Shown piece by piece: positions 14,833 through 41,966 of a DNA stretch of 52,255 bases. The stretch is from the NCBI GenBank assembly GCA_973895155.1, contig OZ316893.1:17773481-17825735 (forward strand), written 5' to 3'. A program made the position numbers and the translations under genes. The notes beneath the pieces were generated by a model. The model ran no database searches and was not told the DNA's origin. It was given only the letters and a program-made list of their open reading frames with translations. The stretch is from Marsupella aquatica. Lineage: Eukaryota > Plantae > Marchantiophyta. Numbering within the stretch: the stretch's first letter is position 1; the number at the start of each line of letters is the position of its first letter.

Positions 14833-17800
14833 ATGCCAAAGAGGAAAGACACGACTGGAGCTGGACCTGCCAACAGCCAAACTTCTTAGCGGAGTAAGAA
14901 AGCACAATCCAAGTCTCCTTCGCCAGCATGTCTCAATTGACATGCTCACAGGGTGGTCCCCTTATGGAGTCAGTCGACTCCAGGAGGAAGTTTGAGCCAA
15001 AGTAGATATCATTTGAGCCTATTGGAGTGGCGAAATTGGCTGATATTGCTGAGAAGGGAGCTTGGGAGTTGATTGTCTCCAAGTATGAGACAAAGTTTAG
15101 TAAGGATCCACCTAGGATCCCCTTGTGCCGGCTCATGCCAATGGAGGCAGTCAAGAATCTTCAGGATGAGTCTGTTGCAAAATTAAAGAAAGGATTCAAA
15201 GAGAGCGGCTATGTTGTAAAGCTCAGCGAGTTCCACATCACGTATTGAGTTCAATGAAACCAAGGAAACGCAGACAATGATAGACTTCAAGCCATTTTGG
15301 GACCCTCTATGGACAAAGCTCAGTGAACAATTTGAGCAAGAGTGTGATGCATCAGAGGAGTTCAAAGTCCTTAAGGACAAGATGTTTTGGGTTTTGATGG
15401 AAACCACAGATACACAGCCTGGTCCGCAATTGCTTCTGAGTATCCGGATCAATTGCAATACCATCCATGCGTCAGACTCTCTCTTTTGAATGTTGGGAAA
15501 GATGGATTCAAGAAGGTTGAGCAAGCAATGCACGCTCTAAACTTTTAAGTACTCTCATTTGCGTCTTTTTGCAAAATGTGATTACCCATTTGTGTAAACC
15601 TTGTGTGCCATCTTGGAGAGCCTCTCTAATATTGCCGTTATGAAAAGGCTCTTCAATGCTAGACCTAAGAGTATTGTTTGTCATTTCCAGGATAAGTGCG
15701 ACTATCGTGAAGACGTCTTGGTTTAATGACGCTGATCAAGTTGCAAAGCTATTGAACACTCCATTGGAGGAATACAGTTTGCTTATGTCAAAGGAGACAA
15801 TGGAGGCTTTCATGAAGGCCCAAAATTGAGGACATGCTAGGAAGACTTGGTACTCAAAGAATATGACCAAAGAAGCCGTTGTGTACATCATGTCTTGGTC
15901 AAACATTGAAGTGGGACGAATCAATATCTCCAAGGAGATGGCACAATATGCAGCTCGTGGGCACCCATGGAGTGTGAAGAGAACTGAGGAGGAGACAGAG
16001 GCAATGATTATTGTTGCATGCAAGGCTTGGGACAACAAGTTCCCCAAGCTTGCAGCCTACGTGAATCCGGCCAATGGAGAGCAATTCATGCCGGTATGTC
16101 GGCAGCTATATCACAAGTTGTCAAAGGACGCCAAGCAAGCAGGGTGTGATGAATGTACAGGTTGGCTTGGACAGGGTCCGCTTGTTTGCTGGAGCTTGGG
16201 TAACTGCAGAGTGCAGAGTAAAGCTATTGAAAGCTCATTTTGGAACAGAGGAAGAGAAGAGTATGTATCACCATCCACGTAGCAAGGGTATGCAGCAATT
16301 AGATCCTGGTTGGCAGTCTGGTCAATGTGGTGTTACATTGACCACGTTGGTTGTGTGATTTTGTCCAATTTTGCTGCAAAGGCCTACCAAAGATATATGT
16401 ACCGTGAGTTTTCCAGGATAGAGGAGGAATTTGCAGAGCTCTACAAAAGGCTTTATTGAGCTTATGTGCAAGAGAAATCATTGAAACTAGGCGGGGAAAT
16501 TTGGATTGATGGAAAGGCCACGGTCTTGTTAAAAGAAATGTGGAAAAAGCAAACAAAGAGGTGTGTGATAAGATTTATGATCCATCAGGAGAACATGAAC
16601 GCATTGATCTGTATTGAAAGAGCTGCCATGGGCACTCACATCTTGGATGGAGCCAAAAGGGAGCCTTAGCATGTATGTGATGGCCAGATTCCTAATGGCA
16701 GAGTAGTCAAAACTCCCTATGGTATATGGAGTACCGTGACTGGAATACTTTTATCGATGACACTGAGAAGGAGTGTGCAATGAAGCTGAAGGCCCGGCTG
16801 AAGGACCAACAGGAGCCTACAAATTACTATGATATATCCAGGCTACGACAATTGTTGGACTCTATGCCCCAGGCAATAGCGCTGGAGGCCATAATCCCAA
16901 TGGACCCAGCCTATGATGGGAAAAAGGCCCAAAAGGAAGGAGGCGACAAGAAGGTCGACAAGGAACAATCCACCAAGGCCAAACTGTCAGATTCTATAAG
17001 CACTCCAACAAAGACCCCATCAGGTATTACTCAATTCCTTTTGCATTAGGTGGTGGCTTGCATTGGAAATAACCTTGGTTGGGGTCGTTGACATAACACT
17101 TAAAGGAATGAGGGTTTCATCTCGGTGAGGGTGGATGACATAGAACGTCTTTGAAATCCAGACCCCTCCACATGTCGGCAAGGCTCGCCGAGATTAAGTG
17201 TCCAGTCCAGTCCAGATGTTGGCGAGGCTCGCCGAGATGAAGCATTAGTTGAGTAATAAGTTGCTTGCATATAATGAACCCGATCTTGGCAAGGCTTGCT
17301 AAGATGCAGTTGCCATGATGAAACTCATCAATTTGCATCATATGCAGGTTCTGTAGAGATCCAAACGGAACTTGGTTCTATCAAGAGCAAGGGTGTAGAG
17401 CCGGCTACAAAGGCAGCAGTTGAGGAAGGTCCAGGGGTTGAGCAGGGTCCAAGGCACAAGGGTACACAACCAATAGTCAAGCTAGGTCTAGACAAGGCTC
17501 CACTGCTAGAATTTGACTTGCCTCCGCATGAGGCTCCTAAAGTACAAGATGAATTGGCTGACGAGCAGCAAGGTGAGGATGATTTGGGTGAGCGAGAGGA
17601 AGAGGAAGATGAAGGGCGCTTGTCTGATATCTCTCCTACGCCTTACCGGCCACCATTACTATCACGGAAAAAGGAAAAGGCCATAAAAAGAAAGCAAACT
17701 AGGCGACCCAAAGCTCCCAACGGGTGTCCAAGCAAAGCACGTGACAAGGAATTTCCTCCTCTTCCTTCCCCCATTGTATCGCCTCCCTTGCCCGGCACTG

Positions 17801-18927
17801 GAGAGGTTCCGCCCACAACCATCCAACCTGACCCCACATTGGAAAATGAGGAGGATCAAGAGGCATGTGCAGAAGAGGATAATATAGAGGTGGAAGGAGT
17901 AAGGCATTCTTACGCCGATACCTTGTCTTCCCAAAGTAGACATATGTATTTTAGGTGGTCTCCAAATCTGCTTACAACTTTTTTTGATGCGGCTAAAGAA
18001 GGTACCAAACCCCCTGTAGTTAGTCAATTGATCTCATGGTGCAAAAAGCTATTGCGGGAAGGTTTGCATCAAAATGCCTGGAGAAAAGGGGGGAAATGAG
18101 TCAAGACTGGTGCAAATTTAATTCTGATACATATGGGAACAGAAAGTCAGTCCACCCCATTGTGGAATTTGTTCCGGGAGGATGATTTGAATCGGGTTCA
18201 GGAGTTTGCTCAAGATGTCCATGATTGCAAGGGACTATTTGCCATTGTGCATAGTGGTTCGCTTTGGCACTTGACTTGCATTTATGATGCATTAGTTTAC
18301 AAGAATACCAACTGGGGGTTGAGAGAAAGCTTCTTTATCTGGAATGACACACCCACCTATGATGGTAGGACTAGGAAGCGAGTAAGTCCCATCAATTACC
18401 TACTTCTTCCAATGACTAAGGAAGTCTAACCTCTGAATGTGTTTGGCCGATCCAGAGTGAATATCTCAAGCTAGACCTATGGGGGTTTAAGTTTGTTGTA
18501 GAGCTCATGCCCAAAGGATGATGTGGAGCCAATTAGTGCAGAGCTCGATATGAAGAGCAAGAATGGGCTAACAAACTATACAACCAAGAAGAATCAGGTT
18601 AACAATCCTTTTGCGAGCATATTTTTGCCAGCAATGCTCCAATGTATCATTGAATATACAACACAGCTAGGGGCAACTATCCTCACTTTCAATGCACAGT
18701 TAGGGGCAATATTCAAGGCGGGTGAGAACTACGGGCGGATGGTGTTTGGGACTAAATCCTATCCACACTTTGGAACTTGTGCACAAGACCAACTAGCAGA
18801 ACTGGTTGGAGTGCTCTCCCCGGAGGAGGAAGAGGTATTGGTGGTCCATTCAAAAACCAATCCAGAAAAGTGCAAGAAGAAAAAGCTAGCATTACTCCCA
18901 ACAACATGTAAGTTTTCTGGCGTTTGA
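14833..18927 (+). pseudogene. ParB/Srx-like plus N6/N4 DNA-methyltransferase-like gene, copy A (degenerate, intron-containing)
   Basis: RIPLCRLMPMEAVK...; MFWV(F)DGNHRYTAW at 15396-15410 across a frameshift; TPLWN...; C-terminal LQCIIEYTTQLGATILTFNAQLGAIFKAGENYGRMVFG resembling the motif-I region of beta-class amino-MTases. Colinear with copy B. GT-AG introns apparent (~15548-15690, ~17024-17348). Confidence 0.65.
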
Positions 18928-19010
18928 CGTTGTTCATTTCATATTTGCTTGCTCATCGCAATGGTTGACAATAGAGAAATACAAGTAAGTAGCCTGGTCG
19001 AGATGTATGC

Positions 19011-19183
19011 ATGTCGGCTGACCTTGCTGACAATCATAGCGTCTGGCCTCCTCTACAAGCGAGGGCAAGTCCTAACTTGAGATGCATGTTGGCGGACCTC
19101 GCCAACATGCAAAGTGTCTGGCCTCCTCTACAAGCGAGGGCAAGTCGGGCAAGTCCTAACTTGAGATGCATGGTGGCAGACCC
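19011..19183 (+). repeat. 75-bp tandem array containing the 23-bp palindrome, split by the inner MULE (continues at 40301-40395)
   Basis: Unit ...CCTCCTCTACAAGCGAGGGCAAGTCCTAACTTGAGATGC starts at 19011 and 19086 and resumes at ~40310. Joining 19183 to 40309 restores a palindrome copy. Confidence 0.75.
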
Positions 19184-19909
19184 GGGTATAGCAACGGAGA
19201 CAGGAAACAAGCTAACCGGAAATTTGTTTCCTGTTTCAAATATGCTGTTACCAGGAAAAAACTGCTTGTACCATGGGGAGAAAACATAGTATCAAGAGTT
19301 TCTTAATTTTTAATAAGTGTAGAATTGTAAATTTTGGAAGTTGTCCATTGCGGTTATGGAGGATACATTGTCATGAATTGTTGAGTTGTAAACAAACATT
19401 CCAAGAAGTTGGCCTCAGACAATGGTTGAATATGAAATAATTCTGCTAATGTATCATTTATTTGCAATGTTCTTCAACGTCAAACTTGAACCACATAATA
19501 ATTGAACCTCATATCCCACAACAAAGAAGGGGTGCATACATAAAAATGTCAAGGAATGCGCACAAACATGGTAGGTCCCACCACAATTTGGAACAAAATA
19601 AATGAAAATAACACAATATGAACCCAAAAAAATAATTTATTGTATTATATGGTCCAAAAGAAAAGCGAACAATGTCTTGACTAGCACCTGGCGCTAGTTA
19701 ACCGGTATTTAGGAAACAAATAGTTGGCAATGACAAAATCAGGCACAACACAATGAAAACACATGGTGTCTCCAGAAGGACAAAATTATTAGCGCTTGGC
19801 GCTAACAAAAATAGAACGCAACATGTACATAACACTATACCGTTGACATACGACAAAATCAATATAACCATTTGGACCAATAGGACAATCGAGAGCATCA
19901 TGACTCAAA

Positions 19910-22214
19910 CTATAAACCATGAGCATTTTGCCTCTCTAATATGAGCCGGACCTCTCCAACAGTGAGAATTGGTTGGCTGGTCAATGTAGATTCCTCAATG
20001 TCTAGTTTGAAAACGGTAAGGAAAATCCAATACAAATGTTTGCAAGGCATATATGGATGTTTTTGAGAATGACGCCGGTTGAAATCCTCACAAGAGCAAG
20101 TTGGGAAAATGCAAATCTGAACAAAGTAACAATTTGGCGTCCGCATATTTTCGTGCGTTTGCACCTTGAACTGCTTTCCCCATGCATTCCCAATAGAGAC
20201 ATCCCACTTTCCTTAAATGGACATCGTCTTTTTTTTTGCAGACTCAATTCTGTTCATGTGACCTTGGGTAAGAGTCGACCAAGGAACCGTATTCCTCCCA
20301 TTCTGGCTTTGGAGACGAACATTGGGTTCGAGAAGATTGACATTTTCTGGAAAGATATTGACATTGATTCAAAGATCAAAATCCAATAGGGGAATAGGAG
20401 TAGATTCATTTCCACAGACTAGTGAGATTCCGTTCTCAAGAAGATAATGCATCTCGTCTTCCAAAACATGTGCCTTTTAAAATGAGAAGATCATCAGGGA
20501 AAGGGGGCAGATTCAATACACCATGATGCGGACGGCGCGGCTTCTGTAACATGCATTGTTTGGGCAAAACCAAATCATTTTGGTTATGGGTTCCCCCCTA
20601 AACATGAGTTGTCCTTTGACAACAATGCCGATAACACCATTTGCTGAGGGAAATCCTACTTTTTCACCCGATTGCGACACTTGTCTCTTTGAGAATTATG
20701 GGCAAATGATCCATTGCACTGAGGACTAGCGCCAAATTTTGAAGTTCAACGTAAGTGCCATGCAGCTGGAGTGACCTCGGTCTCGCGGACATGACACTCT
20801 TGTAACGGTTGCTGAAGCATAGAGGGAGCACTTTGGAGCTACCTTGTTGACGCGTTCGGTCTCGAGTAGGAGGGGTATTGAAATCGACATCTTCTCCACT
20901 ACCCAAAATATCACTTCTAGACAGATTAACAGCATGAACAACCTGAGGCATGGGGCCAAAAATAGCATCAAACATTGTGTGATTAAGATTCTTCCTTTTC
21001 ATCGATCTGGTATTTGGCGAGGTGACAAGGATTTTATCATGCCTATGGGAGTCTTGTGGCGAGATATTCCCAGATGCATGTCCTTTCCTCTTCAAAGATT
21101 TGGTGACCACGTCTCCATTGAGAGGTGCCTGTCTCTCTAAGTCAAACTCGGTAGCGTTGGATAGTAGCATATTCATTGCATCTTCAAACAACTTGGGAGA
21201 GCCTGCTTGGTCCGCTGATTGGAAAGCCAATTCCCAAATTGTTGGACCTTTTCCTCTGTTCAACCCTTTTCGATATGCAGTGTAAGTTGCAACCTGAGAA
21301 ATAGCTCAATTTTGGTCCATTTCACATGCCTCAAAGAGCCCAACCTTTTTTTTCATTACCCACGCTTTCATACTTGCATGAACGGACTCTGATCCTGTAC
21401 AATTAGGAATCTTAGCACTCTTGTTCTGCAATTATATAGAATAAAACGCCTATTAGGCAACAAGACAATACTAGCGCCAGGTGCTAGAGTAGTGGAGCCC
21501 GTACATAGAAGTAAAAAGTTGCAATGTAGATTACGGGACGGCTTATTGTGTCCTATTGTGTCACCTAACAATTGGAATAAATAATAGCGCCAGACGCTAG
21601 GAATAAAGGATGCTATGGTATTGTAATATTTAAAGTTGACACTATCAATACAATCATTCTATAATGATAATATAGCAGCGCTTGGCGCTAGCAATATTTC
21701 AAAAACGGAAAGGAAAATAAAACAACTTACCAAACGAATAAAATTTCTCCATTGCCCCCATCTGACGACCTACCATACTCTGAAGCATCCGGAGCTTCTC
21801 GGGGACACAGTTACCGGACTGCCACCACAAATCAATCTCCCTTGAAAGTCTGTAAGCATTTTGCATCTTATCCCAAAGCCTGCGATGCTCTGCTTGACTC
21901 TCTTCTAACACTCCTTCAACTGAATGGCGATGGAAGGCTTGGTAGAAATGAAATGCGTCTGTTTGCTCATGCTCTGGGTTGGGATGCCCTCCAAAGAAGA
22001 CATTTTGGACTGCCAACCACCCAGATTGGGCGTTGTCCGCCATGAATCCATGAACGATTGGATTTTCCAACCCATTCTCCTTGGACACCTCAATCATTAG
22101 TCTCCAAGCCTTCTCAAAGGACTCTGTATCCTCAGCTTTTAGTTCCCAAGTGAATAAAGTACATAAAGCACGATAGTTGTGATCATAAATATGTGCACTA
22201 AGAGTAACCCAGTC
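19910..22214 (-). pseudogene. MULE transposase family B, C-terminal part (DDE core remainder and SWIM finger)
   Basis: DWVTLSAHIYD...GFMADNAQSGWLAVQNVF...DAFHFYQA (MULE D...D...C/DxxH pattern) and FPTCSCEDF...PCKHLYWIF (SWIM). Frameshifts and stops present. Confidence 0.8.
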
Positions 22215-23051
22215 TGTCACACCATCGGCCTAGTCCTTAGGCTGATCTACATCTAAGACGGACACTTCCCTTGCTAGTATTCGGGTTTGGGCAGGGAGGG
22301 ATGTGCGGAGTGCGTATAATTCTCCCAAACTAGCGCTAAGTGCGCATACATTTACTTACGAGCACGCTTAGGTATGCTTTGTGTTCCGCCGCCGGAACGT
22401 ACCTCAGTCGACACGGGGTCAACCCCGGCTTATGGACTTCTAAGCCTTTGTGTTACCGCCTTTGATCCGGATCCATTAGTACAAGTGCTCAACCCTGGCT
22501 CGCAACCCCGTACCCGTAACCTGCACCCCGTGCACGCTTGGCATAACGTGTTTGGCCCGACATTGATACTTGCACACGAGACTCATACATGCATTCATAC
22601 ATAACAGAAATCTTGATTTACACGAAGGAATTGAGGAGAAAGGATTTCATTCATATATGATCATACACTTACAATTGGGTGACCCGACACCTTGTGAATG
22701 AATGGGCCCAAGGCCGAGGAGTATACACTACAACGGAGCCCGGCTCCGCACTTGCCCGACGAGCTTAGTTGTATACCCTCCCCTTGGCACTCCGGCACTT
22801 CACCAAGTTCAGGACTTCCCCCCGCGTACCGCGAATGGCCAACTGTTATACTAAGGGCTGAGGACCAGCTTGGCCTCATGCCCAAATCTACGCTAACTTA
22901 TATCCTTGCTAAGCTGAGTACGGCTTGTCCTATAAGTCTAACATATTCTACACAGGCTGGCTAATGTGTCAGCGTCGCTATCTTCTGGCCGGCACTTGTC
23001 CTAATAGGCTGTTTTAGCTACTCCTAGTTCTATTCTAAGCCTAACCCTTGG

Positions 23052-23941
23052 CTAATGCCTGGTGCGCTTGCCAGAGCCATCTGAGTGGGAGCAGCCATCC
23101 CGCTGCCTACAGAGTCTGTCGTTGTCCATCTTGAGGAGTTGGACTTGGTCTAGCAGAGATTTGTTCTCTCGCTTTGCCGCATCCGTCTCCTCAACTGCCT
23201 CTTGGCATGCCTCTTCCAGTTGCTGGGTGTTGCTCGTCAGCTTGTCCATCATGTGGTTCTGCTTCTCGACTTTGGTTTGAAGCCACCCTACTTTGGCCTT
23301 TAGGGCGGCAATCTCCGCAGTGTCACGCTGGTCCTGCTCGTCGGCCTCCTCCGGGTCTTTCTGCCAGATGACAGTTTGATTCTTCAAATTGTCAATCTGG
23401 GTCTGGAGCCGTGCAATCTCGGCCTCCTTCCCAACTTTGGCCTGTTCGGCTAAGGCGGTAAGGGCGTGCGCATTTGCTAACAACTCATCGGCGGCTACAA
23501 CCTTGGGTCGTAGTTGCAGAAGCTTAGCCTCTTGAGTCTCAATTTTGCCCTTTAGGTACACGGACTCCACCCGGTACCGCTCTATCCTCTTAAGGGCCTC
23601 CGACTGGGCCCGACCTGCCTTTACTGCGGTAACCAACTCCTGGTTGAAGAAGTAGGCTACCTTCCGGGCCATGAACTCCCTGGTATCCCGGGCAATCTGT
23701 TGGGAGAAGTCTCCCAACAGCCCGTTCAGAAATGTACCCGGTACAAAGAGTTTTGGGTGGTCCAGGTTGTGCCCGTCCGGAGTTGGGCATGGGCAGACGT
23801 CAACTCGCGCGGGAGCCGGGGTAGTGACATCCAGCCCTGGGGATGTAGTGTTGGAAGGGGCTTGGGTGCCCTCCTCCATCATCGTGTTGTCCTCTGGAAT
23901 AGCCATCGGTGGGTCTTCTGGACCCTCGGGCTCGGGCAAGG
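23052..23941 (-). pseudogene. C-terminal coiled-coil part of the ORF of the 22215-32279 unit
   Basis: 295-aa open piece with long coiled coil. It joins in frame to 28612 after removing the inner insertion (QVGPSAEVGAVE|ALPEPEGPEDPP). Confidence 0.7.
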
Positions 23942-23946
23942 CCTCC

Positions 23947-26900
23947 TGTGGTGCGTCCCATGGCTCCCTAAACCCAAGAAACCCCCCAGCTCAAGCCGAT
24001 TCCCGCAGGTTTCGTGCTTGGCGAGGCCGTTTCCGCGGCTTAGCGGCATGGGACGCTGCTAACCTTCTACTACTACTATTAACATTTTACACACATATAC
24101 TGGACAGATCCTTCATCGGGTCATGAGATACGTAGCCGGCCTAATATAGGCCTTCCCCTGTCTTCCCCTGTCTTCCCCTCCGTCTTGTTAGGTATGTTTG
24201 GATTCCGCCGCCGGAATGATCCCCAATAGGCTTGGTTAAGCCGCTAAGACCTCTCTCAGCTCGACACATCCAACTCTCACTCCCCTGCTTACTTTCCTTC
24301 CTTCTGTTGATGTGGGCACTCTTCACACAAGTTAATGCGACACACAAATAGCAAAATGACTCATTCTGACTGAGTCATACCATGCACTTGCCATACAAAC
24401 AGTACATCTCATACACAAGTTCTGCGAACTAAGCCGTGAGGCCAACTCTATTCAGCTCTTAGGCATGAGGAAACATGAATATACACAAGGGTCACTGTAT
24501 GACTAACCGAGAGCTTCTCGTACTACTTGATCCCAGCCCGGCTGGTGCAAACTAAAAACTTGCTAAAGAAGAGGCCCTGAGCTCCCCGCTGCCCAGGTAC
24601 TTATCCTGGTAGTGGATCCGCCATTCTTTGCATCGTAAGCCTAATCTACCTGACAGTAATCTACTTGCCCGAATCTACCTATGTACAGCAAGGCAGGAGC
24701 ACAAGTGTTGCTCCTACCAGTGGGACCGCAATCCCACTAAGCTAAGTGTCAGGGCCGCTCCTGGTTCTGATCCTAATCCTAAACGTGGAGATCCGCGCCC
24801 GCCCTGCCCACTCACGCCTCCTCCCTCCACGTCCGCCCTCCCTAAAAGGAACGGCGCCCTTGCACCGTCACGACACCGGTGGTGGATCCTCAATGGACGC
24901 CCCCAACACTTCCTCCTCAGCCACTGCCGTTGGCCCGCCTACTGACAGATTACCTGCCCTTGACCGAGTCAACTCTCCATCGGCCTGACTGGGTCCACCT
25001 TCGGCTTCAGCCTCGACACCGGCCTCGGCAATACCCACGGCTTCGGCCTCAGCCACTCCAACGGCTTCGGCTTCAGCCACTCCCTTGGCTTCGGCCTCCC
25101 CTTCCCCTAGGGTAGTTGGATCCTTAGCCGTGACCCTGTCTGGGGTCGGTGCTGGGTCTACCTCCTTGATCACCACGGCCTGTGAAGTCGTATTACTCCT
25201 TGACCCTGAAGGTGTCCGCTTCTTCTTCGTTGGTGGCTCGGCAGCTGGTCCCTTCCCCTTCCCACTTACTTCCGGCACTGGTGCAGGTGGCGCGGCTTGT
25301 CCTTCGGCAATTACCACCCCTGGTAACTGGTTTGTCCCAACGGGAGATGGACCTGCTGCAGCTAAGCATTTAAATACTGCGGCTTGTTTCTTCAGCCGCT
25401 CTGTTTGGTTGTCGGCCCGCCGCTGTAGGTTCTCCATCTTCCTCGTGATTTCCTCCAACTCCTCTTGGGTTTCATCCAGGTCCTTACGTGCCCCCTCCAG
25501 CTCGTTTTTGGCCTCCTCCTGCTCCCTGTGGGCTTCCTCCAATTCCTTCTTCAAGGTAGCCCTCTCCTCCTGGGTTGCTCTTAGCTCCTTGTCGAGCTCT
25601 GCAATGATGACAGACTCCATCTGGTTCATCTTGGCGTAAGTCTGTTCGAGCATCTCGTCCTTCTCCCTTAGGTCGGCCTTGAAGCTGGCCGTCAGGGACG
25701 CAAGCTCCTGCTGCAGCGCCATAATCCCTTGATAGGATTTCCCTAACTCGACCTCCTTCTGCTCAAGGGCTCCGCGGATTCTCTCGAGCTCCCCTTTCAA
25801 CGCCCATTCCTTTCTTTGGGTCTCCGCCATGGCCCGGCTGTTGGCTGTTATGTGGGCCTCCTCTGTATTCTTCAGCTCTTGCTTCCACTTCTCCCTCTCT
25901 TTGATCATGTCGGCCAACTCTTCCTGCGTCTGAGTCAGTTTATCCTTGATATTCTGATTATCAGCCTGCGCGGCGTCCAACTGCCCCTGCATGATGTTCA
26001 GCTCATGTCGTTTAATCCGCAGTTCATCTTGGGCTTTCTTGGCCGCCCTTAGATCTTCAATCTCGGCTTCCATCCTCCTAAGCCGCCGAATGACCTCGTC
26101 CTTCTTGCTTCTCTCTAAAGCCACCGCTTCTTCTAATTGGTGCTTCTCCAACTGCTCCCTATGGAAAAAGGGTCCTACCTCCAACTCCTCTCCAAAGATG
26201 CCGAGCGCAAGTTCCCCACACATCTTACCATACTCCATGGCTCTATTCTTAGCGTAGGTGGAGTAAGTAGAAGTGATCGGCATCGCCCATCGTGGCCTCT
26301 GCTCCCAAGCCGTCCTGCGGATCTCTTCAATCGTGGCTAGAGGTTTGCTTCCTTTTTCGGCTAGCCGCCTGATGTCCTCCGGCCAATCTCCCCCTGGTAA
26401 ATCCTTTTCCTTAGCCAGGGCGGCCTCTTCCTCCTGCTTGATTCGCTCCTGAAATTCCTGTACCGTCTGTTTTATGCTGTCGAAGCTCGGGGGAGCAACA
26501 TCTGGTGGGGGAGACTCAGGGCTACTCTGCTGGTTGGGGTCCCCTCGCACTACCCTTGGAAGTGTGGGGACAAACCGGCCACAGGTCCTTACTCCTGGAA
26601 CGTGATGGTCCGACCCATAGCCGGAATTATCATGGCTGCAGTCCTCCACTGCCTCCTCTACCTCTTGGACGTCCGGCTTCTCCCTCTCCTCTTCGTCGGT
26701 AGGAGCTTCAGGCAATTCTGCCTCAGATTCGGAGCTTGAGGTTCCCACGTACATTCGAACACTTGGCTTGGATTCCGGCCTGATTCTCTCCTTGTCTCCA
26801 GCAAAGGGGTTTTCTCTTGTGAGCCGGTGTTGGCCTACCTCTGTAGTAGTGTCCTGCATTGTTGCCGTTGCCGTTGTTGTTGCCGATGCCGATTTCTTTT

Positions 26901-28606: not shown

Positions 28607-28611
28607 CCTCC

Positions 28612-31600
28612 ACCGCCCCGACTTCTGCGCTCGGCCCGACCTGGTTGATCGCGTCTAAGGTTGCGATCACTGCCTCGTCCGGTACCTCTTCGGCCACGGT
28701 TACGGCTACTTGTGGAGGTGGAGTGGGTGAGGCATGCGTGGCCGCCAGACTTTGGGCCTTGGGTTGAGGCTGTCAGTGGTGGACCTTGCCACCCAGCGCC
28801 CTCACCAATCCCAGCACTCATGTCTGAGTGCCCTTGGCGCCCGAACGCCTCCACGGAATACCTTGAGCAAGCATCCAAGTGCCTCTAGCACCACCTGCGG
28901 CCCCTCCCATACGAAGCCGCGCTTGCTCACCTACACGACCGCTACTCAACGGTACTCACTGTCTGCACAAGCAACCAAGCACCTCGGTAAGTAACCCCTC
29001 CGGATCTAGAACTCGCCAAGTCTAGCATCCTAACTCAAGCTCAACAGACGTTGGTAAATAGGTCAGCGATAGGTCCTCCCGATGCCATAAGCCGGAACCA
29101 GAACCAACGCCCACTGTTCGTCCCGAACAACTCCTTCCTTGGGCGCGGCCCAGGTTCCCCCTCATACGTATCCATCACCAACTGACCACCCTGACCTCAG
29201 GACATGCTCATGGCCCAATTAGCATATTTTGTCCTAAGGCTTGTCTCAACACGCCGGGACCAGAACGGCCCCGACTCTAACAACCGCTCCCGGTTTGCCC
29301 CACTGATGGTCTAGGGACCGAGCGCCCTTGGAACTCAGCCTCCATACCTACTTCGCCTTGCCTCCCTAACGCAAGCTCCCTTGGGAGGCTGAACGCGGCT
29401 TGGCTGCTGTTCGGCAGGATTGGCAAGCGGGGTGAGCTAACACCCGCAAACCACGAGAACCCATGGCACCCCCGGACCCATCTGAGTTAAGGAGGGCGTA
29501 GCTCAAGATCTTTCCAACGCACCCAAGAAGTCCTACAACAGACTTCTCGTTGGGAGGATATCGCCATTTCCGTTTGGCGGTTTCCCTTAGTGTCGCGATC
29601 ATCGCGGCTCACGACTTCGGCTTGGCTTTAGCCCCCAAGGAGACACCACTACCCTCATATATGCTTCTGGAGACCTGCCACCCCCAGACCAGCTTTGGTC
29701 CCTAAACATTTGGCCCCCAACCCGGATCCCATGGGGCATAATGGGCGCGCCACCAATTGGCAATGCCCATAACTTTCTTGATAGGCATTCACAAGCGAAG
29801 TGCCTTCGCCCGTTGTGACCGGGCCGACCCAGTGCTCATGCCTAGGCCCTCAGGTCTGATTGCCGCTCGGGGCCCCCGACCGGCCCAACCCGGATCGGGC
29901 CACAACTTGCGCCCCAAGCGTCCGTTGCCAATGGCGTCAACTCCATTGGCCTTGGGCCCAAGAGGAGCTCACTCCCAAGCCCTCATAACTCAAAGTCCAT
30001 CCGACGGTCCGGACGGCCATCCTTGAGTCCGGCCCATTTCCCCTTGACCCGACCAGCCATAGGCTAGTCCAAGTCCTTAGTGTGTGTCCCCAGCTTGGCC
30101 CCTTGCCTTGCCAGTGCCACGTCTCATTGCCCACAAGTCTCCCCATGCTAAGTCCTCCCCGGATGGCCTATCCGGGCTTGGACCATAAGGGAGCTCGGCG
30201 TCGGAGTCAGCGACGCCGGAGCTAAGTGTTAAGGTAGTCGAGTTCCGCGACTCCGTCTCTCCAAGGCCAGGAAGACCCACTTAGTTGGGACCAACTTAGT
30301 TACGTTGGCCCAAGGAAGGGTTCCTCGATCAAACCGAGCGTACCACTCGAGAATGAGCTCGATGTGGCTCGCGAAATACGCCTTCCTGCCAATGTACAAC
30401 GCCTTCCTTTGTCGTTCCATCTCTTCATGGAACTTCTTAGCAAAGTACGACGCCCACTTCCTAGGCCGATAGTTCTCGACCTGGATAACCTGGGCAGCGG
30501 AGATCTTGCCTCGGGGTTCCATCATATGTAGGGCGTACCTCTGGAACTCCAGCCGCTCAGCTATCTCAAGGATGAGGCAAGTCCTCATCACGAACTCGTT
30601 GTCCACTGACCCCTCGGAGGGGAAACTCGAGGATTGGTACTTGGCTCCTTTACCCCCGGGAGCTCATGATTCGACTTGTTGATCTCCCTCAGGTAGCCCG
30701 AAGATCATCCTGAGCCGCTCCTCTATGAGGGACATATTCCTCCCCCGTAGCCGAGTATGCTGACAAACGTCGTCATAATTCTTGACAAACTCTGTCATGT
30801 CCTCCCCGTAGTACCTACAGGTGTTCTAGGGGAGAGAGGCGAGGTGATCGAACCCCTAAGTCTTCAAGTACACCGCATGTTTGGGGTGGAGGATGTTCTT
30901 ATGCACGTTCTCCCCCATGCGGTGCATTGTCACCTTGGCCATGGTTAACCCGGATACAGCTGCGGGTTCCTTCCTCTTCTTTCCCCAAGACTAGCTCCCG
31001 TGATGGCTCGGAGAGGGTGACATCTCCCCATCCTCCCGATTGGGTATGGGTAGTGCCACCGCCGTTAGTATTGGGGCCGGGTGGCTATGGTCACCATGTT
31101 GTCCATCGGAGCTGCTACTCGGGTCTGGGCCTGGGGAGGGGGCTATGTAGTGCCGACTCCCTGGGTGCTCGCTCCTCTGGGCCGCCTGAGCAAGGGTAGG
31201 GTAGCCTCATCGTCGTCGCTGAGGTCCACAACATTGACGATGGATCACACCTGTATGGGCGGGGCGATCGGTGGTGGGGATCGGCTAGGTTGAGGCGGAG
31301 CCTGAGCCTGAGCCGGTGTTGGTGCGGGTATGGGCACGGTCTTGGCTGGGCCGGCACCGGTGGTTGATGGTATGGCTGCCATGAAGTTCTGCAAGTGCTG
31401 ATAGAGGTTTTCCGAAGCAAGTGTAGACGGCCTTGTCAACTGGGTAGTGTTGAACTTGCTGTTGATGATGGCCTGGACCCGAGCGGGGATGTGGTCAAAG
31501 TGGTGCCGCTATAAGTTGATTGTGCCCGGGATAGTGAAGACCGCGTCCGGAAGCTGAAGCAATGCCTCCCAGAAGCCGATGTATTTGCCCCCGTCGAAGA

Positions 31601-31825
31601 AGTACCCTGATATTTCTTCGGGTCGGTAAAGCTCGCTCTGGGATGGGTAATCAAAGTGAAGGAGATAGTGGTGGCGGCCTGCTAGGCGGATGGCTCTCTT
31701 GTACTCGCGTTCAATTTTGTATCGGCGCGGTTGGTGTGTTTTAATGAGTCGGCCAAGTGCCCCCCGATAGACAGGAACTGCGTCCAGAATCGTATGGCCA
31801 AACTAGAAAGGATCGTGTGCGACAT
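28612..31825 (-). pseudogene. N-terminal decayed part of the ORF of the 22215-32279 unit
   Basis: Fragments incl. 30229-30606 (KWASYFAKKFHEEM...YFASHIELILEWY, accessory-ORF-like) and Pro-rich linkers; many stops and frameshifts. Confidence 0.55.
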
Positions 31826-31923
31826 TCAAAGGAGATAGAAGGCGACTAAGGATGGGCGAGAGAACTGGGATCAAAGTTGGCGCGTGGACTGAAGAATTGG
31901 TGCATTGCAAAGGATTGGCCCCC

Positions 31924-31931
31924 TTTTTATA
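31924..31931 (-). promoter_or_regulatory. Candidate TATA box upstream of the LTR-internal ORF
   Basis: TATAAAAA(GGG) on the minus strand, ~350 bp inside the unit's 5' end and ~100 bp before an ATG at 31825. Confidence 0.4.
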
Positions 31932-32279
31932 CCCTAAGAGCTCGTCGGTCGCCCAACGCCTCCTTGTTGCTTATAGGCCAAGCCTTTCACGCTTGTAGTG
32001 TACCGGCCACTCCGCCAGTCCGGGTAAGCGCGTGTCAGTGGCCGTCTCCCGGAGTTCATTATACGGACCCGAGGGAGGGGGGCCCATTACATGCTTGCAA
32101 CCGGGCGTGCGAATGGCGACCCGCCACCCCGAACACAAATGCGCCTTATTGACTAATGATTTCCTACTCATAAGGGCTACCAAAATACTGTCGTTACGCT
32201 AATAATTATGGCCTAAGATACCCCTAACGCACGTGCTAAACGTGGTTAGGCCAAATCACTCATTACCGGCGGCGTCACA

Positions 32280-33843
32280 CAGTCTTTTGTGAGTCGTGTC
32301 ATCACATCAAATCTTACCCAAGCACCTTCCAGACTCCCACTAGGTTGCATTTGTCTCAAAAGATCAACGCCTGATCCATGGCCGACCAAAGTCATCTTGA
32401 ATATGTGAGGACGGTCTCCTTGAGATCCTTGACCTGGTAGGAGGTACCTTTGGAGGAAAGGCATGTTGATATTTCTTTGATATCGAACAAGAAAATCTAG
32501 TTCACCCCGACCTTTCTGGTCCTGTCTAACACTACGGAAAAGGGACGCAAACTTCTGGGGTGTGGAAACTACCATGAGCGACTCAAAAATCTTTGTTTAT
32601 TCAATATCTTGAATATCTTCCATACTTTCACACAAGGACTTCACAAAGGACCCTGTCGCAACATTCTTTACACCAGCTGGGGTGAAAATTGGATTTCCTT
32701 CCAATTTCTTTTTCATAACCTCCTCAACAATCTTCTCTGCGCTCCTCGAAAACACCTTTCTTGAAGGATGGTTGTGGATCCCCATATGAATTGCTAAGCG
32801 GGACATGTGAGTACAGGTTTCTGAGTCAACTAGAACCTGCGGGTACATGTAAAATAACCGTGCTAGATAGGATTGGACACAAAACGGAACTTCATCACAA
32901 AATTGGCAAACAACTCCACCTTTGTCAATGAAGGAGCCAACACAATGTTGCCCGCCAAGTTTGGGGATTCCAGCCGAGGCCTTATGGTTCCTCCTTTTCT
33001 TCCGCCAAAAATAGTCGCAAGTATTATTCCTACACTCAATGAAACTAGTGCACGTTACTTTACCAAATTCCCAATATTTTTTGGGATGGATGTTAGCTGA
33101 TGTAGGAAATATTTTGGTCCAGATGTAGCAACCCTTCGACCGGTCCATGTTGTGTAGACGTGACCCCTTCAAAAGAGCTCCCAACGTAGGAGGCAACTCG
33201 AATACAATATTTCCATTGTATTTCTTTGGCAAACAGTCGACTTGCTCATGACAAAAGTCCCCAGCTGCGATGAATCTTGAGATTTCACTGGAACCAGTTG
33301 ACTTGAGAATAGTATCCATTGCACTTCTTCAATACACAATGGAATTTTTGGCAGAAACAATGGGAACCTCCTCGTTCACAACTGAGTGAGGGAGTTTAGG
33401 AATTGACTGAGGCAAACAAGAAGGGCCATCGTCATCGCTATCTGAAAGCAAGACAACATCAACAAAGGGATTGGATGAAGATGGGAGATTGGGTGCTAAT
33501 GGTTTCCTAATGACAATAGAATACCGCAACCCTGCATTCAGGTGCCAAAAAAAAAATCCCATCATCAACATCAAAAGAGGTAGTAAAGGTTGACGCTTCA
33601 TCTCCATTCCCCTCCTCCAAAATGTCCTCGATATCATTCAAATTCAAACCAAACCTCCCATAGATAATTCTCACTAACTTGCTTGTATACATCATTGACA
33701 GACAATGGAATGGATACAATGTCACCAGTAGACGAACGAGTAACAATGATTGACCTCGACATTGCAAAATCAGTAAACCCAAAACCCATAGTTGAAGATA
33801 ATGAATGACAGTTTCGCACGTCCACAATGGTATTCATAGTCAA
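32280..33843 (-). pseudogene. MULE transposase family B, N-terminal part (GCM/WRKY-like zinc finger, first catalytic Asp)
   Basis: IWTK...KVTCTSFIECRNNTC...CQFC...C...HMGIHNHP (C/H-rich, GCM-like by eye) and GAWVRFDVMTRLTKD ending at the TSD. Stops and frameshifts present. Confidence 0.7.
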
Positions 33844-34941
33844 GATGCCGTTTGTCAGAGCCGTTAGAATACGACAGAAGCACTACGGGGCGAAAACACT
33901 TCTGACACAATAAATGTTTTTGTCGTTATGTCAACGATATTTACACTAACGAGCCTAAACTGACCATTCCCAAATACCATAGTCATGTCTCTGAGATCAC
34001 CATAATTGAATAGCGCCCAACGCTACTAAAACATAAACACAAAATTTGGACATAAAATGGTATGTATTATGTTTAGCGCCAGGCGCTACTAAAACATACA
34101 CACTAAATTCTGGACTTAAAATGGTATGTTTTATGTTTAGCGCCAGGCACTAATATCCAGGATTTTGGAATACCTCCTAAATTTTCAGCGACACTTGAAA
34201 AATATTCAAAACATTTGCCAAAAATGAGGAGATTTTATACTAGCGCCATGCGCTATTCTTCATATGTAATTATCACATTGATTTGAGGACAAACATTCCA
34301 AAATATGTACATATATTGTATTATTTTTTATACTTTGCAGTCATATATGTCTCCATTTGTAGAAAAAATTGTGTTAGATTATGGAGAGTTTTTGGTAGCG
34401 CCAGGCGCTACTATTGAACAATACAAGATTAAACCTGAAGAATATAGATAATTTAATTGATCGCAATATTTATCTAACGATCATATTCAACGGTAACTTT
34501 TGGTTGCGTAATGTTGAAGGTAGGTCTACGGTATTCCAATGACAAATCCGGAGGTGACAAGTGGCATTTTGGAAAATGTCCTGGATAGATATCAATGTAG
34601 CAAGGGGATAATTTAGAGAGGGTACTCTCTCCACCTTCCTGGTCCGTTGTATTTAGGTTCCATTCTGGAGGTTATTCGTCCAAGAATTCTCTACAAGAAG
34701 TACGGTACAAATGAAGTACTCATTCTGAGCGTGAGGAACTTGGGGTTTGCAAAACATGGACCCTCTCACCACCACCTCGCATGGGTATAGTGCAAATAGG
34801 CAGAGAGAGCACATCCATTCCCAAACATCCGAGTGCTCATTTTTTGGATCTGTTTACAGTCATCCTGTGACACAATCTATAGCATCGCAAGCTCTCGAAA
34901 TAGTCACGGTTGTCACATTTCCAAAGAGTAGGAGAGCGAAG

Positions 34942-37900
34942 ATGGACAATCTCAACACATACGCAGTGGAAGATTGTGGAGAAATATCATTGACAATGTC
35001 CGACATTATCTCCAAACACGTTATGTTGTTTGGCAAGGATTTCTGAGGGCATGACAAAGACCCATCGAGGATTCCAATGTGTCGATTGGTTCACATGGAA
35101 GTTGTCCGCACCTTACAGAAGGGAAGTCCTTCAATTGAAAAGTTGAAGGACTCTTTTTGGAGCATAGGATACAACTCTAAAATTGGAATGCTTTTTTATG
35201 TCCCAGCCGACATATTCAAATGGAAATGTCCAGACGTGTACTCCTGAAATTTGAGCGACCTGGGACCCATTGTGGGTGGCAGAGAACAAGAAGTTTGAAG
35301 CTGAATGTGCGGCCAATCCAGACTTCAGGGTCCTGCCGGATAAGATGTTTTTTGTTTTTGATGGTAACCATCAACTTTACGCATGGTCAATCGTTACGAA
35401 CAAAAATCCCAATGATATCAAGTACCACCCTCGGGTGCAATGTACTATTTTCAAGGGTGAAAAGGGATCTTTGATTGAGATTGAGGCGGCTATGCATACT
35501 GTGAACCAGTAAGTCTCTCTTTGAATATCACTGTCTTTCGTTCATAGTGTTGAGAGAATCCATTCCATTTTACTAGCACCTTACACTATTTATTGATCTA
35601 TTTTTTTGTAGACTTGGGAGATAAGTAATCTCATCAGTTATCAGTCACTTTCATCAGTGTACCTGATATCAGCTACCACCTCATCTCAGAGAGGCCAAAA
35701 AGTTGTGATGCAAAAGAAAAATGAAGAAAAAATAAATTCTTGAATTTTTCTTCAAAAACAATTTTGCCATGAGGCATCCGTACCGTACGGACACCTATCT
35801 CGGCGAGCCTAGGCAAGATGGGAAAAAAAATTCCAAATTTTTTTTTCCAATTTTTTTTGGGGAAAATTTTTGGTTTTTTTTTCCCCATTTTTTTTTGTCC
35901 GTACGCCCCATCTCGGCAAGGCCAGCCGAGATTGAGTCAACCTTGGCTGCCCAGCTGAGATGTGTGGAAGTTCGAAGGCCCCATCTCAACTCCTCAGCTG
36001 AGATTCTGAAATTTTTTAGATAACTGATGATGTTGTGTACCCCGTAGACTTGGGCAGGCCGTGGTGGAACCTTCTTGGATACTTGACGCTGACAGAATTA
36101 AAAGGATTTTTGTCCAACAATCTTGAATACTACAAGTCAATTATCAATGGGGAAAACTTCAAGAAGTTTGGGCAGGTGATGCAGAAGACTCGAAAGGGAT
36201 CGTGGTATACTAAGAAAATGCCTCAAGAAGCACTTTTGTATATCTTATGCAAGAATAAGATTAAATCCTATTCTCGTCAATTCAAGATGGATCTGGAGTC
36301 GGCCACCACTCACGGAAATCCTTGGTCTCAAGAGAAGACGTCCAAACAACATGCAGTCATGATGAAAGAAGCAACAAAGGATTGGGCAATCAAGGTCTCG
36401 AAGATCACTCCCTTGTTGAGTCTGGAGTTTGAAGACTTCATGACCACTTGCGTTGAGATGTACCCAATGACAGAGGTGAACAAACGTGAGAAGAAACCGG
36501 ATGCGGTTGTCTGTACCATGGATTGTGCCAGGTTATTCACAATAGTCTCCACCCTTGACCCCGAATTGAGGAGTACTTTGTTAGTTGCGCATTGCATGCC
36601 AGAGCTCAGGAAACAATTCTTTCATCCGCAAAGCGTTAGCAATGACCCTGTGAAGCAGTGGTGCCACACCTGGCAAACTTGGAATACCGTGGAGGGAATT
36701 GCCATTGGTATGCTACAGACTGCCCTTCAGTAGGTCAGTGAAATAATTCCTTCCAACCGATTGGAGGAATGGAACTATGAGTCTTATGACTCACTCATTG
36801 AAATAGTGTGTAATGATTTCAAGAAATTTGGGAGCGTAGTGAAAGGCAAGTTTTTCAATACCATGTGGATGTCCAAGTACCCAGACAAGGAAGACTACAC
36901 ACTCAAGAATCAAAAGCAAGCAAGACAATATGTCTATTGTTTCTTCATGCACATGGAGACTGTGAAGCCCGATTATTTTTGGGCTTACCCAGTTGCTTTT
37001 CAGAATTGGGTCAATGCATAGACAGAGATATTTTGGCCAAACTGTACTCCATGTATCCAACTGAGGGAATCCTTTCGCCTTGGAAATTGTCCGAATGGGA
37101 GAGAATTCACTGCCCCTAGTATCTTGACACCGACCGATGGGACACTCCTTTTGATGACACTAAGAAGGACGCTTTCCATAAACTGTCCAAATCCCAAGTT
37201 CCTCCAAAATGTGTCTCCGATATGAAGCAAGGAATTGAGGGAGACGTCAACGTGTCGACAACTAAATTGCAAAAAAGATGTGAAACCGCTGTGGTTCATG
37301 TTGATCAAAGCCAAAAACCAAGAGCCAAAGCAAAGGCGGATGCACCTGTGCCAAGTGCTAGCGCCAAGTCTGGGAAAAAACGTATGTTATACATCCCTAT
37401 TCTGAATTCCTTCTTTGGGTAGCGCCCGCCGCTATTATGTGTCATGTGTTTAATATGTTTTATTTTTTCTAAACAATTGTGTGTTTGGTCAGCGCCAGGC
37501 GCTATTACTAATTATGTGTTTAACACCCTACTTCTGTAGGTGGGAGAAAATCTGATGGGGCTATAGATGACACAAAAATAGATGCAACTCCAAAAGTCTT
37601 TGGGGCCAATACTAGCTAGTGCCAATCCAAACCCTATCACCCCAGTTGAGAAGGGGAAAGTTATAGTTCCCGTGGATGCAGAAAAGGACTATCGATGTTT
37701 GGGAATTGTCTCAAGATAATGCTTATGGGGCTGGTCTCCAACAGGACATGGGGAAATTCAAGAGCAAAGTTGGAAGGCAGTGTATGGTCGAATCCAACTT
37801 GGCTGATTTTATAGATAGTGCTTTAGCAAGGAAGAGAAGCCAGATTGGGTCGCAGGCGCTGAGAAGTGGGGTAAGGATTTGATCAAGTTGGGCTGTAGAT

Positions 37901-39330
37901 AAAGGAGTCATTAGAGGTGGGAAGGAACGATCATTTGGGGTCAATGTCGGGTTCAACTATCTTCCAACTAGATTGAAACCCACAATTGTTGACCGTCGGG
38001 TCCCGAAATGGAATGCAACAGATCACACAGCAGCCAAATCATTTTCTGAGCTATGGATCCTTTCCTTTCGGGTGATGGCATGCTTGCTATCTTATACTCG
38101 GATGACTACGATCAGTTTTCCCAGGTTATTGTTGCATATCAGCAGTCCAAGAAGTTCATGTGCATCAATACACACAATGTTTTCATGTCTAACCCAATGT
38201 ACAGATCCAAGACAGACGTCCAGGTAAATGTTTTCTCTAAGTCTTACTTTATTAGCGCCCAACACTATTTTTACTTTTGGAGTTCTTCTTTGTTGACTAA
38301 GAGTTTTAAAATCCAATTGGTTTTCTGACTGGTGCAGGTCTTCACTCTTAGACTAGATATATTCTGTCAAGTTTCTTTCAAGGGAAAGGTCCCAAAGGAT
38401 CCAAGGTTCAATCCGTTATCTAGTGCTGAAGATCCTTCAATCTCAAACCTCATTGGGTTGCAATCTTTGAAGGTAGATCATTGTCCTGAACTGTAGTTTA
38501 CCGGAAACGCCCGACTCTCGGTTGGGTTTATGCAAACTGTCATTGAACTCTTTACGATACCTAAGGATATTGTTATTGATTGGACCGTTGGCTCAGGTAG
38601 TACGTTCATTGCTGGGGATTACTCTGGTTGTTTTGTCATTGGATTAGAAAACCGTCGGGAGTTTGTTGAGACCGCTTCAAGGATTTTTTTGGACCTCATT
38701 TCTCCCAAAACTTTGGAGACACAACCTCTCCCTCCTCAAATAAGTGGACAAAGAAAGAAAGATAGACTGCAATCTATCCTCAACTTTGATTCAGATGAAG
38801 ATGATGGTACGCCGGAAGATGATGTTCCTGAGGATGTCAATGACAGTGGGAAAGAGGAAACCCGCCATGAAGGGTCAATGGAGGATAACAAAGAGTCTTC
38901 CAAGTAATTTTTGTCTCTCGTAAGCTCCTTTATCCTTTCAATGGTTGGTGAACCTAGAATTCCACTAGTTGGTTCAGCTAAGTACTTAATTACTTCCTCT
39001 TTATCTTCCGTTTCTCTTTTGAGCAGGTTAGAATGGAACCAAAGAAAGTTGTTTCAACTACGGAGGAAAGTGGCTCAAAATGTAATCATCACTCTGGAGA
39101 AGCCCTTTGTGTTGCCATCATACGCTGAGAATGTCACAAGGAAGGTTGAGAAATTTAGGACGTTCTCCTGGGAAACAAAAGGCCTTAAGGCTTCTTAGGG
39201 GAGTAGACAGGAGGTTCATGAGGAACCCTACGTAGACGATGTTTCTAGAACCAAGTATATTGATGACAAGGCTAAATTGACCGATAGATCTCATAGCTCC
39301 AAGAATGATAGCTTAGGATCTGACATTGAA
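34942..39330 (+). pseudogene. ParB/Srx-like plus N6/N4 DNA-methyltransferase-like gene, copy B (degenerate, intron-containing)
   Basis: RIPMCRLVHMEVVR...; MFFVFDGNHQLYAW at 35360-35374; VPKWN...FLSGDGMLAILY; C-terminal VIELFTIPKDIVIDWTVGSGSTFIAGDYSGCFVIGLE...FVETASR (38530-38690), matching the SAM-binding motif I region of N6_N4_Mtase proteins. GT-AG introns at ~35509, ~37382 and ~38224. Confidence 0.75.
35618..36043. mobile_element. 426-bp MULE-type MITE (family A derivative)
   Basis: TIR cores TCATCAGTTATC / GATAACTGATGA, 10-bp TSD GTAGACTTGG (35608-35617 and 36044-36053), carries several 23-bp palindromes, left end matches the TIR at 41915-41966. Confidence 0.85.
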
Positions 39331-41914: not shown

Positions 41915-41966
41915 TGATATCAGTGAATGTTGAAAGTCACTGATAACTGATGAAATTATGTACCTC
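41915..41966 (-). repeat. Terminal inverted repeat of the family-A MULE
   Basis: Reverse complement GAGGTACATAATTTCATCAGTTATCAGTGACTTTC matches the MITE left end GAGATAAGTAATCTCATCAGTTATCAGTCACTTTC. Confidence 0.7.

Follow-up and report, generated by a model that had tools for sequence, protein, structure and literature searches.

A predicted ParB/Srx and methylase-fold cargo gene with element-specific palindromes in two putative Mutator-like transposons of the liverwort Marsupella aquatica

Accessory genes that combine ParB-like and DNA methyltransferase domains have been described in transposons of algae. The element Sola1-1_Ec32 of Ectocarpus encodes, on the strand opposite to its transposase, a protein of 1104 amino acids (aa) with ParB and N4-cytosine/N6-adenine (N4C/N6A) methyltransferase domains, and the same paper cites like proteins in green (Iyer et al. 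2011) and red algae (PMC12477816). In red algae, the Plavaka accessory genes PAG2 and PAG3 encode ParB-oxygenase and methylase-SET proteins, and this Bostrychia preprint also places such genes on Chondrus Mutators and reports inverted-repeat arrays beside the ParB gene (bioRxiv 10.1101/2025.02.11.637652). A helper of a different kind is VANC21, which binds motifs in the introns, spacers and ends of its own Mutator-like element (MULE) (PMC5735166), and methylase domains that lack activity have become fixed in DIRS1 elements (PMC4738411). Here we examine a stretch of 52,255 nucleotides of the liverwort Marsupella aquatica (assembly GCA_973895155.1, contig OZ316893.1, positions 17,773,481 to 17,825,735; the whole stretch is called the window below, and positions are counted from its first letter), which holds two diverged copies of a ParB-methylase cargo gene in two nested transposons, elements A and B.

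A previous reading made from the letters of this DNA alone (the sequence-only reading) had described the cargo gene as a stable second gene of a MULE lineage that may mark or protect element DNA. It overstated the novelty of the arrangement, as a ParB plus N4C/N6A accessory gene opposite a transposase is already in print for Ectocarpus Sola1 (PMC12477816). The helper kind is known from algae; new here are the land-plant host, the Mutator-like carrier, a motif IV that is degenerate throughout the family, and a pair of families each with a distinct candidate site. No report of a ParB-methylase helper in land plants or in the liverwort lineage was found in the open-access literature, and algal supplements may list more carriers. 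Our best reading, by analogy with described systems, is that the cargo protein would be a self-recognising helper with VANC-like logic and ParB/parS-like parts.

The cargo gene and its predicted domains

The window consists of eukaryotic, repeat-rich DNA, and the region is a nest of transposons in which element B is inserted in the 3' part of element A. The parts that concern the cargo genes are as follows.

4200-41966: element A (outer), ending on the right at 41966 and broken up by element B and by a solo long terminal repeat (LTR, 7946-12019)
4333-4560, minus strand: transposase A remnant, SWIM finger and C-terminus
14833-18927, plus strand: cargo gene A, pseudogene, domain order as in cargo gene B
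19184-40300: element B, putative Mutator-like DNA transposon, about 10.6 kb once the two later insertions are subtracted
19910-22214, minus strand: transposase B, 3' part, with FMADN (second Asp), DAFH (DxxH), GSESVHASMK (Glu) and a C-terminal SWIM finger
32285-33900, minus strand: transposase B, 5' part, with a Cys/His zinc-finger-like region (frame 32597-33328) and the first catalytic-Asp candidate VRFDVMT
34941-39336, plus strand: cargo gene B, pseudogene, delimited by tblastn of homologues; its start may lie at 34758
~34941-35508, 36048-37381, 37540-38223, 38338-38903 and 39027-39336: predicted exons of cargo gene B, splice sites read from sequence

Cargo gene B lies head-to-head with transposase B, on the plus and minus strands respectively, and encodes in order a ParB/Srx domain, a helical domain, a linker, a beta-class methyltransferase fold and a short conserved tail. 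The layout of a minus-strand transposase facing a divergent cargo gene, which the sequence-only reading had given to both families within 14833-39330, holds for element B; the transposase of cargo gene A lies outside that interval, and just its SWIM remnant, which has the expected orientation, is recognisable. Both cargo genes are pseudogenes, as previously read, with stops and frameshifts in each. They are homologous by tblastn (E 1.6e-17 for the ParB exon and 3e-12 for the middle) and, at 22-51% identity in the aligned pieces, are distant paralogues. Cargo gene A is 60-67% identical to the database protein P0015.

Homologues were found with the middle exon of cargo gene B as query, which returned 47 representatives, and cluster look-ups led from these to full-length gene models of Riccia sorocarpa. 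Two of the models, R1sor_027256 (1207 aa) and R1sor_027328 (1027 aa), hold DGNHR, LDLP(T/S)G and DFAGGWG all in one chain. ParB and amino-methyltransferase domains stand in one protein in P0051 and P0086, which together with P0092 are long proteins that include the motif I region, and both window genes map along P0051 from its ParB part to its methylase part. The named homologues are all from liverworts: Riccia sorocarpa accounts for 8 of 10 in one look-up, a second look-up of ten gave one Calypogeia fissa and one Riccia protein, and all 25 methylase-domain matches are dispersed Riccia copies on 8 scaffolds. No characterised host gene was among the named matches. A metagenome scan of 134 candidate stretches yielded two further loci, L001 and L002 (1188 and 1931 bp), and intron 1 follows the same MHxxN motif in these two loci and in both window genes. 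In a tree of the middle domain, cargo gene A groups with Riccia proteins, and cargo gene B joins a clade that includes Calypogeia as well as most of the unnamed proteins (support 100/99); this tree holds 24 rows chosen for a long middle domain out of 92 proteins and is midpoint-rooted for drawing only. On these sequence comparisons the cargo gene is an old, stable second gene and not a fresh capture, because there are two diverged paralogues with common intron positions, dispersed Riccia homologues and a Calypogeia fissa homologue, and the earlier proposal to this effect stands.

The last predicted exon (39027-39336, with LP.YA and then YIDD) has a weak match to about 10 Riccia models (E 0.02-0.7); it may represent either a conserved tail or a small gene of its own.

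The N-terminal motif DGNH(R/Q) was found where the sequence-only reading had placed it, as DGNHR in cargo gene A (frame 15390-15548) and DGNHQ in cargo gene B (35255-35509). DGNHR stands in 10 of 11 motif-holding rows and is the reading of cargo gene A, L001, L002 and 8 Riccia rows, the DGNHQ row being cargo gene B; 2 further rows are mis-modelled at this site. The GxxR nucleotide-binding motif of ParB/Srx is present in the family. A model of the ParB domain of a Riccia homologue (predicted local distance difference test score, pLDDT, 78) matched 12 of 48,161 chains at Z >= 2, all of ParB/Srx type, led by KorB (Z 7.5, root-mean-square deviation 2.9, 95 residues aligned) and followed by PadC, Pnob8 ParB, sulfiredoxins, free serine kinase, Atu1540, SbnI, SspE, Spo0J, BrxU and a Dnd protein. 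We take all 12 chains to be members of the ParB/Srx superfamily. The best Foldseek matches were Noc, ParB and Srx (probability 0.97-0.99), with a phage ParB-like protein at E 1.3e-3, and the Atlas gave structure matches to ParB (TM score 0.50-0.57) and feature matches to DUF3723 (0.96) and ParB_N (0.92). Because these structural matches agree, each score alone being below Z 8, the modelled N-terminal domain is assigned a ParB/Srx fold, in line with the earlier assignment.

Profile searches of single sequences against Pfam, PHROGs and NCBIfam gave no ParB match; a profile of the ParB domain plus middle domain found nothing in the PDB, and tblastn found nothing in phages. In a model of 901 aa the ParB part was mostly below pLDDT 70 and gave no fold match; the matches came from the ParB domain modelled alone. 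The middle domain is helical and confidently modelled, with a best Z of 6.2 on short helical pieces. In the Atlas, the ParB-like domain lies nearest to DUF3723 clusters of Ascomycota and to unnamed Cnidaria clusters; DUF3723 of the fungal Starships, too, may have a ParB fold and act as a helper of mobile elements.

The C-terminal domain matches PF01555 in the second-to-last coding exon of cargo gene B (E 8.5e-7, 29.6 bits against a cut-off of 26.7). In the Atlas, phage N6_N4_Mtase clusters are the nearest to the Riccia domain (0.95); the profile of this domain aligns to residues 57-262 of CcrM (E 0.002), P0065 covers positions 16-217 of PF01555, and the permuted beta-class order is kept, with motif IV near the start and motifs X and I near the end. 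These sequence matches assign the cargo a beta-class amino-methyltransferase fold, in agreement with the earlier assignment. The motif I segment that had been read in the cargo is clear in gene B (IELFTIPKDIVIDWTVGSGSTFIAGDYSGCFVIGLEN, within 38497-38904); the corresponding slot of gene A reads TFNAQLG and has lost the motif I glycines. DFAGGWG in Riccia and DWTVGSG in cargo gene B keep the Asp and both glycines, not the Phe of FxGxG; DFAGGWG itself stands in 12 of the 22 Riccia rows with letters at this site, with near variants in most others.

Motif IV departs from the canonical form throughout. Its slot reads YLPT in cargo gene B (37958-37969) and IHMG/HMGT in cargo gene A (~18127), in line with the YLPT and IHMG noted earlier, and the 19 alignable Riccia copies fit D[LM][PS][ST] (DLPS 9, DLPT 3, DMPT 3, DLSS 2, DMSS 1, DMPS 1). 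These counts come from an alignment (A7) of 26 Riccia proteins, 6 of them gapped and 1 misaligned at the slot, with P0080, a peroxidase fusion, left out. The Asp is thus present in 19/19 Riccia copies and the aromatic residue in none of them (0/19), nor in either window copy (0/2). Contigs of other copies of cargo gene B show just an A>T difference at 37956, adjoining the slot. In amino-methyltransferases, the aromatic side chain in motif IV packs against the target base once this has been flipped out; with that residue missing, methyl transfer is doubtful. The idea that the cargo marks its element by methylation accordingly finds no support in either window copy or in the Riccia family.

Element-specific palindromes and competing explanations

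Each of the two elements has its own palindrome, a feature that the sequence-only reading had not noted. In element B this is TAGCGCC-N1-GGCGCTA, of which 16 copies with at most 3 mismatches were found, all within the element, against 0.03 expected; the remaining 41.6 kb of the window has 0 copies.

19682, 19790, 21472, 21585, 21676, 34011, 34074, 34138: B palindrome copies
34241, 34396, 37420, 37490, 38253, 39400, 39545, 40017: B palindrome copies
35574: weaker B palindrome copy

All 16 lie outside predicted exons, and exon models make up ~63% of B; the sites fall in the intron of the transposase gene, in the intergenic spacer, in introns 2 and 3 of the cargo gene and in the two end regions; the naive P of 1e-7 for this placement ignores clustering and coding constraint. 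The palindrome of element A, ATCTCGG-N9-CCGAGAT, was found 23 times with at most 3 mismatches in the A segments, which add up to 12.6 kb (0.28 expected), with two more in an A-family miniature inverted-repeat transposable element (MITE) and one in each copy of an LTR described below. A spacer of 9 gives 27 matches in the window and other spacers give 0-6. Since the consensuses were read off the same sequences, the comparison with expected counts makes them look too good; how they were derived has no bearing on the spacer test or on their confinement to a single element. The A and B palindromes sit in equivalent cargo introns and are element-specific. Neither was present in L001 or L002, where intron 1 carries other repeats: L002 has 12 copies of AAGCC-N4-GGCTT (0.1 expected), and L001 has one perfect repeat with 10-bp arms, reached in 6 of 2000 simulations. 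Intron 1 of the cargo gene has a palindrome in all four loci read, the B copy being degenerate.

Two side observations concern these repeats. A third palindrome family, GTCATTTTGGAC-N2-GTCCAAAATGAC, with two perfect and three degenerate copies, lies at 3441-3820, to the left of what remains of transposase A, and may mark a further related element. A single contig links two B palindromes (34420-40018) and omits the entire cargo gene, with 22 letters on the short side; it may represent a deletion derivative via recombination between palindromes, or a mis-join.

We propose that the cargo protein recognises its own element via the family-specific palindrome and protects or activates the element without methylating DNA, a proposal to which we give an even chance. 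A dimer of the cargo protein would read the palindrome of its own family, because a two-fold site suits a two-fold protein, as for ParB at parS. The helical middle domain would supply the binding specificity, and the ParB domain would bind nucleotide and may let the protein spread along DNA. The methylase fold would serve as a SAM-binding (S-adenosylmethionine-binding) or base-covering pseudo-enzyme that keeps host 5-methylcytosine (5mC) silencing off the element, as VANC proteins do for VANDAL elements. A more detailed version, in which a borrowed ParB/parS system loads a nucleotide-gated clamp at the intron palindromes, the clamp slides along the element, the dead methylase shields cytosines from host methylation and each family re-keys this lock-and-key device, is in our view unlikely.

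Several results weigh against self-recognition by such a helper. No structural match reached E 0.001 or Z 8, the tool's caution level, and the model was built on a Riccia homologue, not on a window protein; structure searches gave no helix-turn-helix or other known fold for the middle domain. Cargo and transposase are seen linked in element B, and for element A their linkage is inferred. The L002 array may belong to an element of another family that inserted there, and the cargo-less A-family MITE keeps two A palindromes. Most Riccia copies keep the catalytic Asp, the motif X Lys (22/22), the motif I Asp and Gly and the acidic SAM contact (18/22), which speaks against a fully dead domain; cargo gene A has lost the last three.

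The retained residues bear directly on a rather unlikely alternative, that the cargo is an active, atypical amino-methyltransferase which the ParB domain targets to the palindrome, where N4-methylcytosine or N6-methyladenine (4mC/6mA) would be written, blocking 5mC or marking the element for transposition. The whole beta-class fold is kept, with the motif IV Asp in 19/19, DFAGGWG in 12/22 and the motif X and SAM-contact residues as just given; the B palindrome site includes CCWGG/CCNGG and GCGC; bacterial-type 4mC enzymes work in Marchantia (bioRxiv 2021.02.12.428880), and the Ectocarpus protein is predicted to be active by its authors (PMC12477816). Set against this are the missing motif IV aromatic residue in 19/19 copies, where the Marchantia enzyme has TSPPY, the YLPT and HMGT of the window copies, the lost motif I glycines of cargo gene A, and the precedent of fixed inactive methylase domains in DIRS1 (PMC4738411). 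The cargo-less MITE, in turn, fits a view in which the palindromes are transposase sites, extended subterminal repeats offsetting short ends, and the cargo targets elsewhere or acts in the transposition complex. The element termini are indeed short and imperfect, the transposase has a zinc-finger-like N-terminus, and a Mutator transposase alone is reported to give sequence-specific activation (2026 preprint 10.64898/2026.08.24.746577). The palindromes, however, are not confined to the neighbourhood of the ends and occur far within the elements, in the spacer and in introns of the two genes; the same cargo intron bears a palindrome in 4/4 loci, and ParB-bearing algal elements show the same association. 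We hold this view, too, to be somewhat improbable. Chance Pack-MULE capture of a host gene fragment without a role for the element is very improbable: MULEs often take up host fragments (PMC6446971) and both window copies are pseudogenes, but a whole multi-exon gene stands beside the transposase, the two paralogues at 22-51% identity have a common layout, two deep clades span Riccia and Calypogeia, the 25 dispersed Riccia copies occupy 8 scaffolds, and no host donor was among the named matches. The preferred reading of a self-recognising, non-methylating helper is made testable by the two diverged families, which are neighbours here and have one sharply defined candidate site each, and cargo gene models that look intact are available in Riccia, a cultivable liverwort relative of Marchantia.

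Transposases, element boundaries and nested insertions

Transposase B has an intron at ~21429-21730 in its 3' part, and an insertion of LTR type (22215-32279) separates its two parts. With a single copy of CAGTC retained, the parts join in frame across this insertion, VRFDVMTRLTK leading to DWVTLSAH, so the idea of two separate transposases within 14833-39330 was rejected in favour of one split gene with a continuous frame. The translated motif order is FD, MAD, DAFH, SES, whose roles we assign by likeness to DDE motifs, presumably those of a Mutator-type DDE transposase with D..D..(C/D)xxH..E. Profile searches with the transposase B fragments gave no Pfam MULE, NCBIfam or PDB match, and the SWIM fingers of the two elements (E 0.16 and 0.19) are both below the Pfam cut-off. 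SWIM is given for many MULE groups (PMC6446971). The SWIM finger of transposase A (4350-4524) shares 53% identity with the SWIM region of transposase B across 58 aa (E 3e-16; z 34 against shuffles), and the five other transposase B pieces had no convincing match at 4250-7935, upstream of cargo gene A. Elements A and B are thus putatively Mutator-like by motif order, the superfamily being unproven by profile.

In four sequencing runs, contigs cover transposase B and cargo gene B at similar depth, far over the flank; in run X4 the depths were 283-635 and 310-772, respectively, against 11.7 in the flank, depth not being equal to copy number. No contig in the four runs spanned both genes.

Further features of the elements are the following.

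19184 and 40300: ends of element B, short and imperfect, GGGTATAG... / GAGGTATT...
35618-36043: A-family MITE, non-autonomous, 426 bp, at the acceptor of cargo gene B intron 1
40301-41966: 3' part of element A, with terminal repeat and a 40-bp tandem array of the A palindrome (40440-40870)

Element B is flanked by GCAGACCC (19176-19183) and ACAGACCC (40301-40308), which are identical at 7 of 8 positions and represent an 8-bp target duplication with one mismatch. It cuts an A-family repeat unit that resumes at 40301. Its two termini have a short G(A/G)GGTA start in common and are otherwise weakly similar, and A-type ends are ~27-39 bp; among MULEs, the non-TIR group lacks long terminal inverted repeats. 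The right end of element A resembles the MITE ends, and no left end was found by terminal-repeat or target-site search. The MITE has ends like the element A right end at 41966 and a perfect 10-bp duplication, GTAGACTTGG; contigs of other copies of cargo gene B skip it. Both duplications, 10 bp perfect and 8 bp with one mismatch, are within the 8-11 bp given for MULEs (PMC6446971). The 4-kb repeats at 7946 and 42862 were considered as borders of the region and rejected, the first having its own target duplication. In two runs there are contigs that pass from the left portion of the MITE into the right end of element A (35707-41698), which suggests other short A-family derivatives and offers a clue to the left end of element A. 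Telo-box-like motifs of the AAACCCTAA type lie in element A near both gene regions (13786-13801; 4030-4140).

Insertions of LTR type within the elements are listed here.

7946-12019, plus strand: solo LTR inside element A, 4074 bp, CGATC on both sides, with a 623-aa coiled-coil open reading frame
22215-32279: LTR-type insertion in transposase B, TG...CA ends, CAGTC on both sides

The solo LTR lies between the transposase A remnant and cargo gene A. Self-BLAST found a second copy, 99.9% identical and also with an open 623-aa coiled-coil frame, at 42862-46935, followed by a primer-site-like sequence and an open gag-pol frame of 1696 aa (Pfam reverse transcriptase, RNase H and gag) that looks intact. 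The two LTRs belong to a very young family with a gene inside the LTR. The insertion at 22215-32279 holds minus-strand coiled-coil frames of 1225 and 312 aa, with Pfam coiled-coil matches below cut-off; no LTR pair and no gag-pol were seen in it, and it is possibly a giant solo LTR with internal genes. Within it, 27071-27429 resembles 1277-1635 (71%).

Comparison with known systems

As in Sola1-1_Ec32, ParB and methyltransferase domains stand in one protein of ~1100 aa opposite a transposase, and the Ectocarpus protein is proposed to bind and modify its own element. The present genes differ in their Mutator-like carrier, land-plant host, family-wide degenerate motif IV and mapped palindromes, the likeness being one of described domain layout. 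PAG2 and PAG3 likewise bring a ParB-like domain and a PF01555 methylase together as transposon cargo; there, ParB is joined to a 2-oxoglutarate oxygenase and the methylase to SET, in two genes, and here one protein holds both. DUF3723 of the fungal Starships resembles the present cargo in being a conserved auxiliary gene that mobile elements of eukaryotes carry (bioRxiv 10.1101/2021.12.13.472469). Its clusters are the nearest in the Atlas by features (0.95-0.96; PF12520 in 31-47% of members), which is a lead only, and alignment and Pfam searches gave no match of the cargo to PF12520. MpDN4MT1 of Marchantia is another prokaryotic-type beta-class amino-methyltransferase in a liverwort, and unlike the cargo it is a host gene with a TSPPY motif and shown activity; ParB has 0 occurrences in the accessible text of that preprint (bioRxiv 10.1101/2021.02.12.428880).

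With ParB, Noc and KorB the cargo family has in common the predicted ParB/Srx fold, the GxxR motif and palindromic sites of similar size. It differs in having no ParA, no recognisable helix-turn-helix, DGNHR in place of GERR, and a large helical domain joined to a methylase fold. Throughout the family the catalytic aromatic residue has been lost, which argues that setting a methyl mark may not be what the protein is for. In its proposed logic, the system resembles VANC and the VANDAL elements of Arabidopsis, which also have an extra MULE gene and family-specific, partly tandem motifs in non-coding DNA that differ between related families. The VANC motifs are 9-bp arrays in the same orientation, here the candidate sites are palindromes of 15-23 bp, and Pfam found no common domain. 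Binding and demethylation have been shown for VANC (PMC5735166). If the proposal is true, plant MULEs would have, besides VANC, another anti-silencing system built independently of it, and epigenome work would gain a tool that is sequence-specific.

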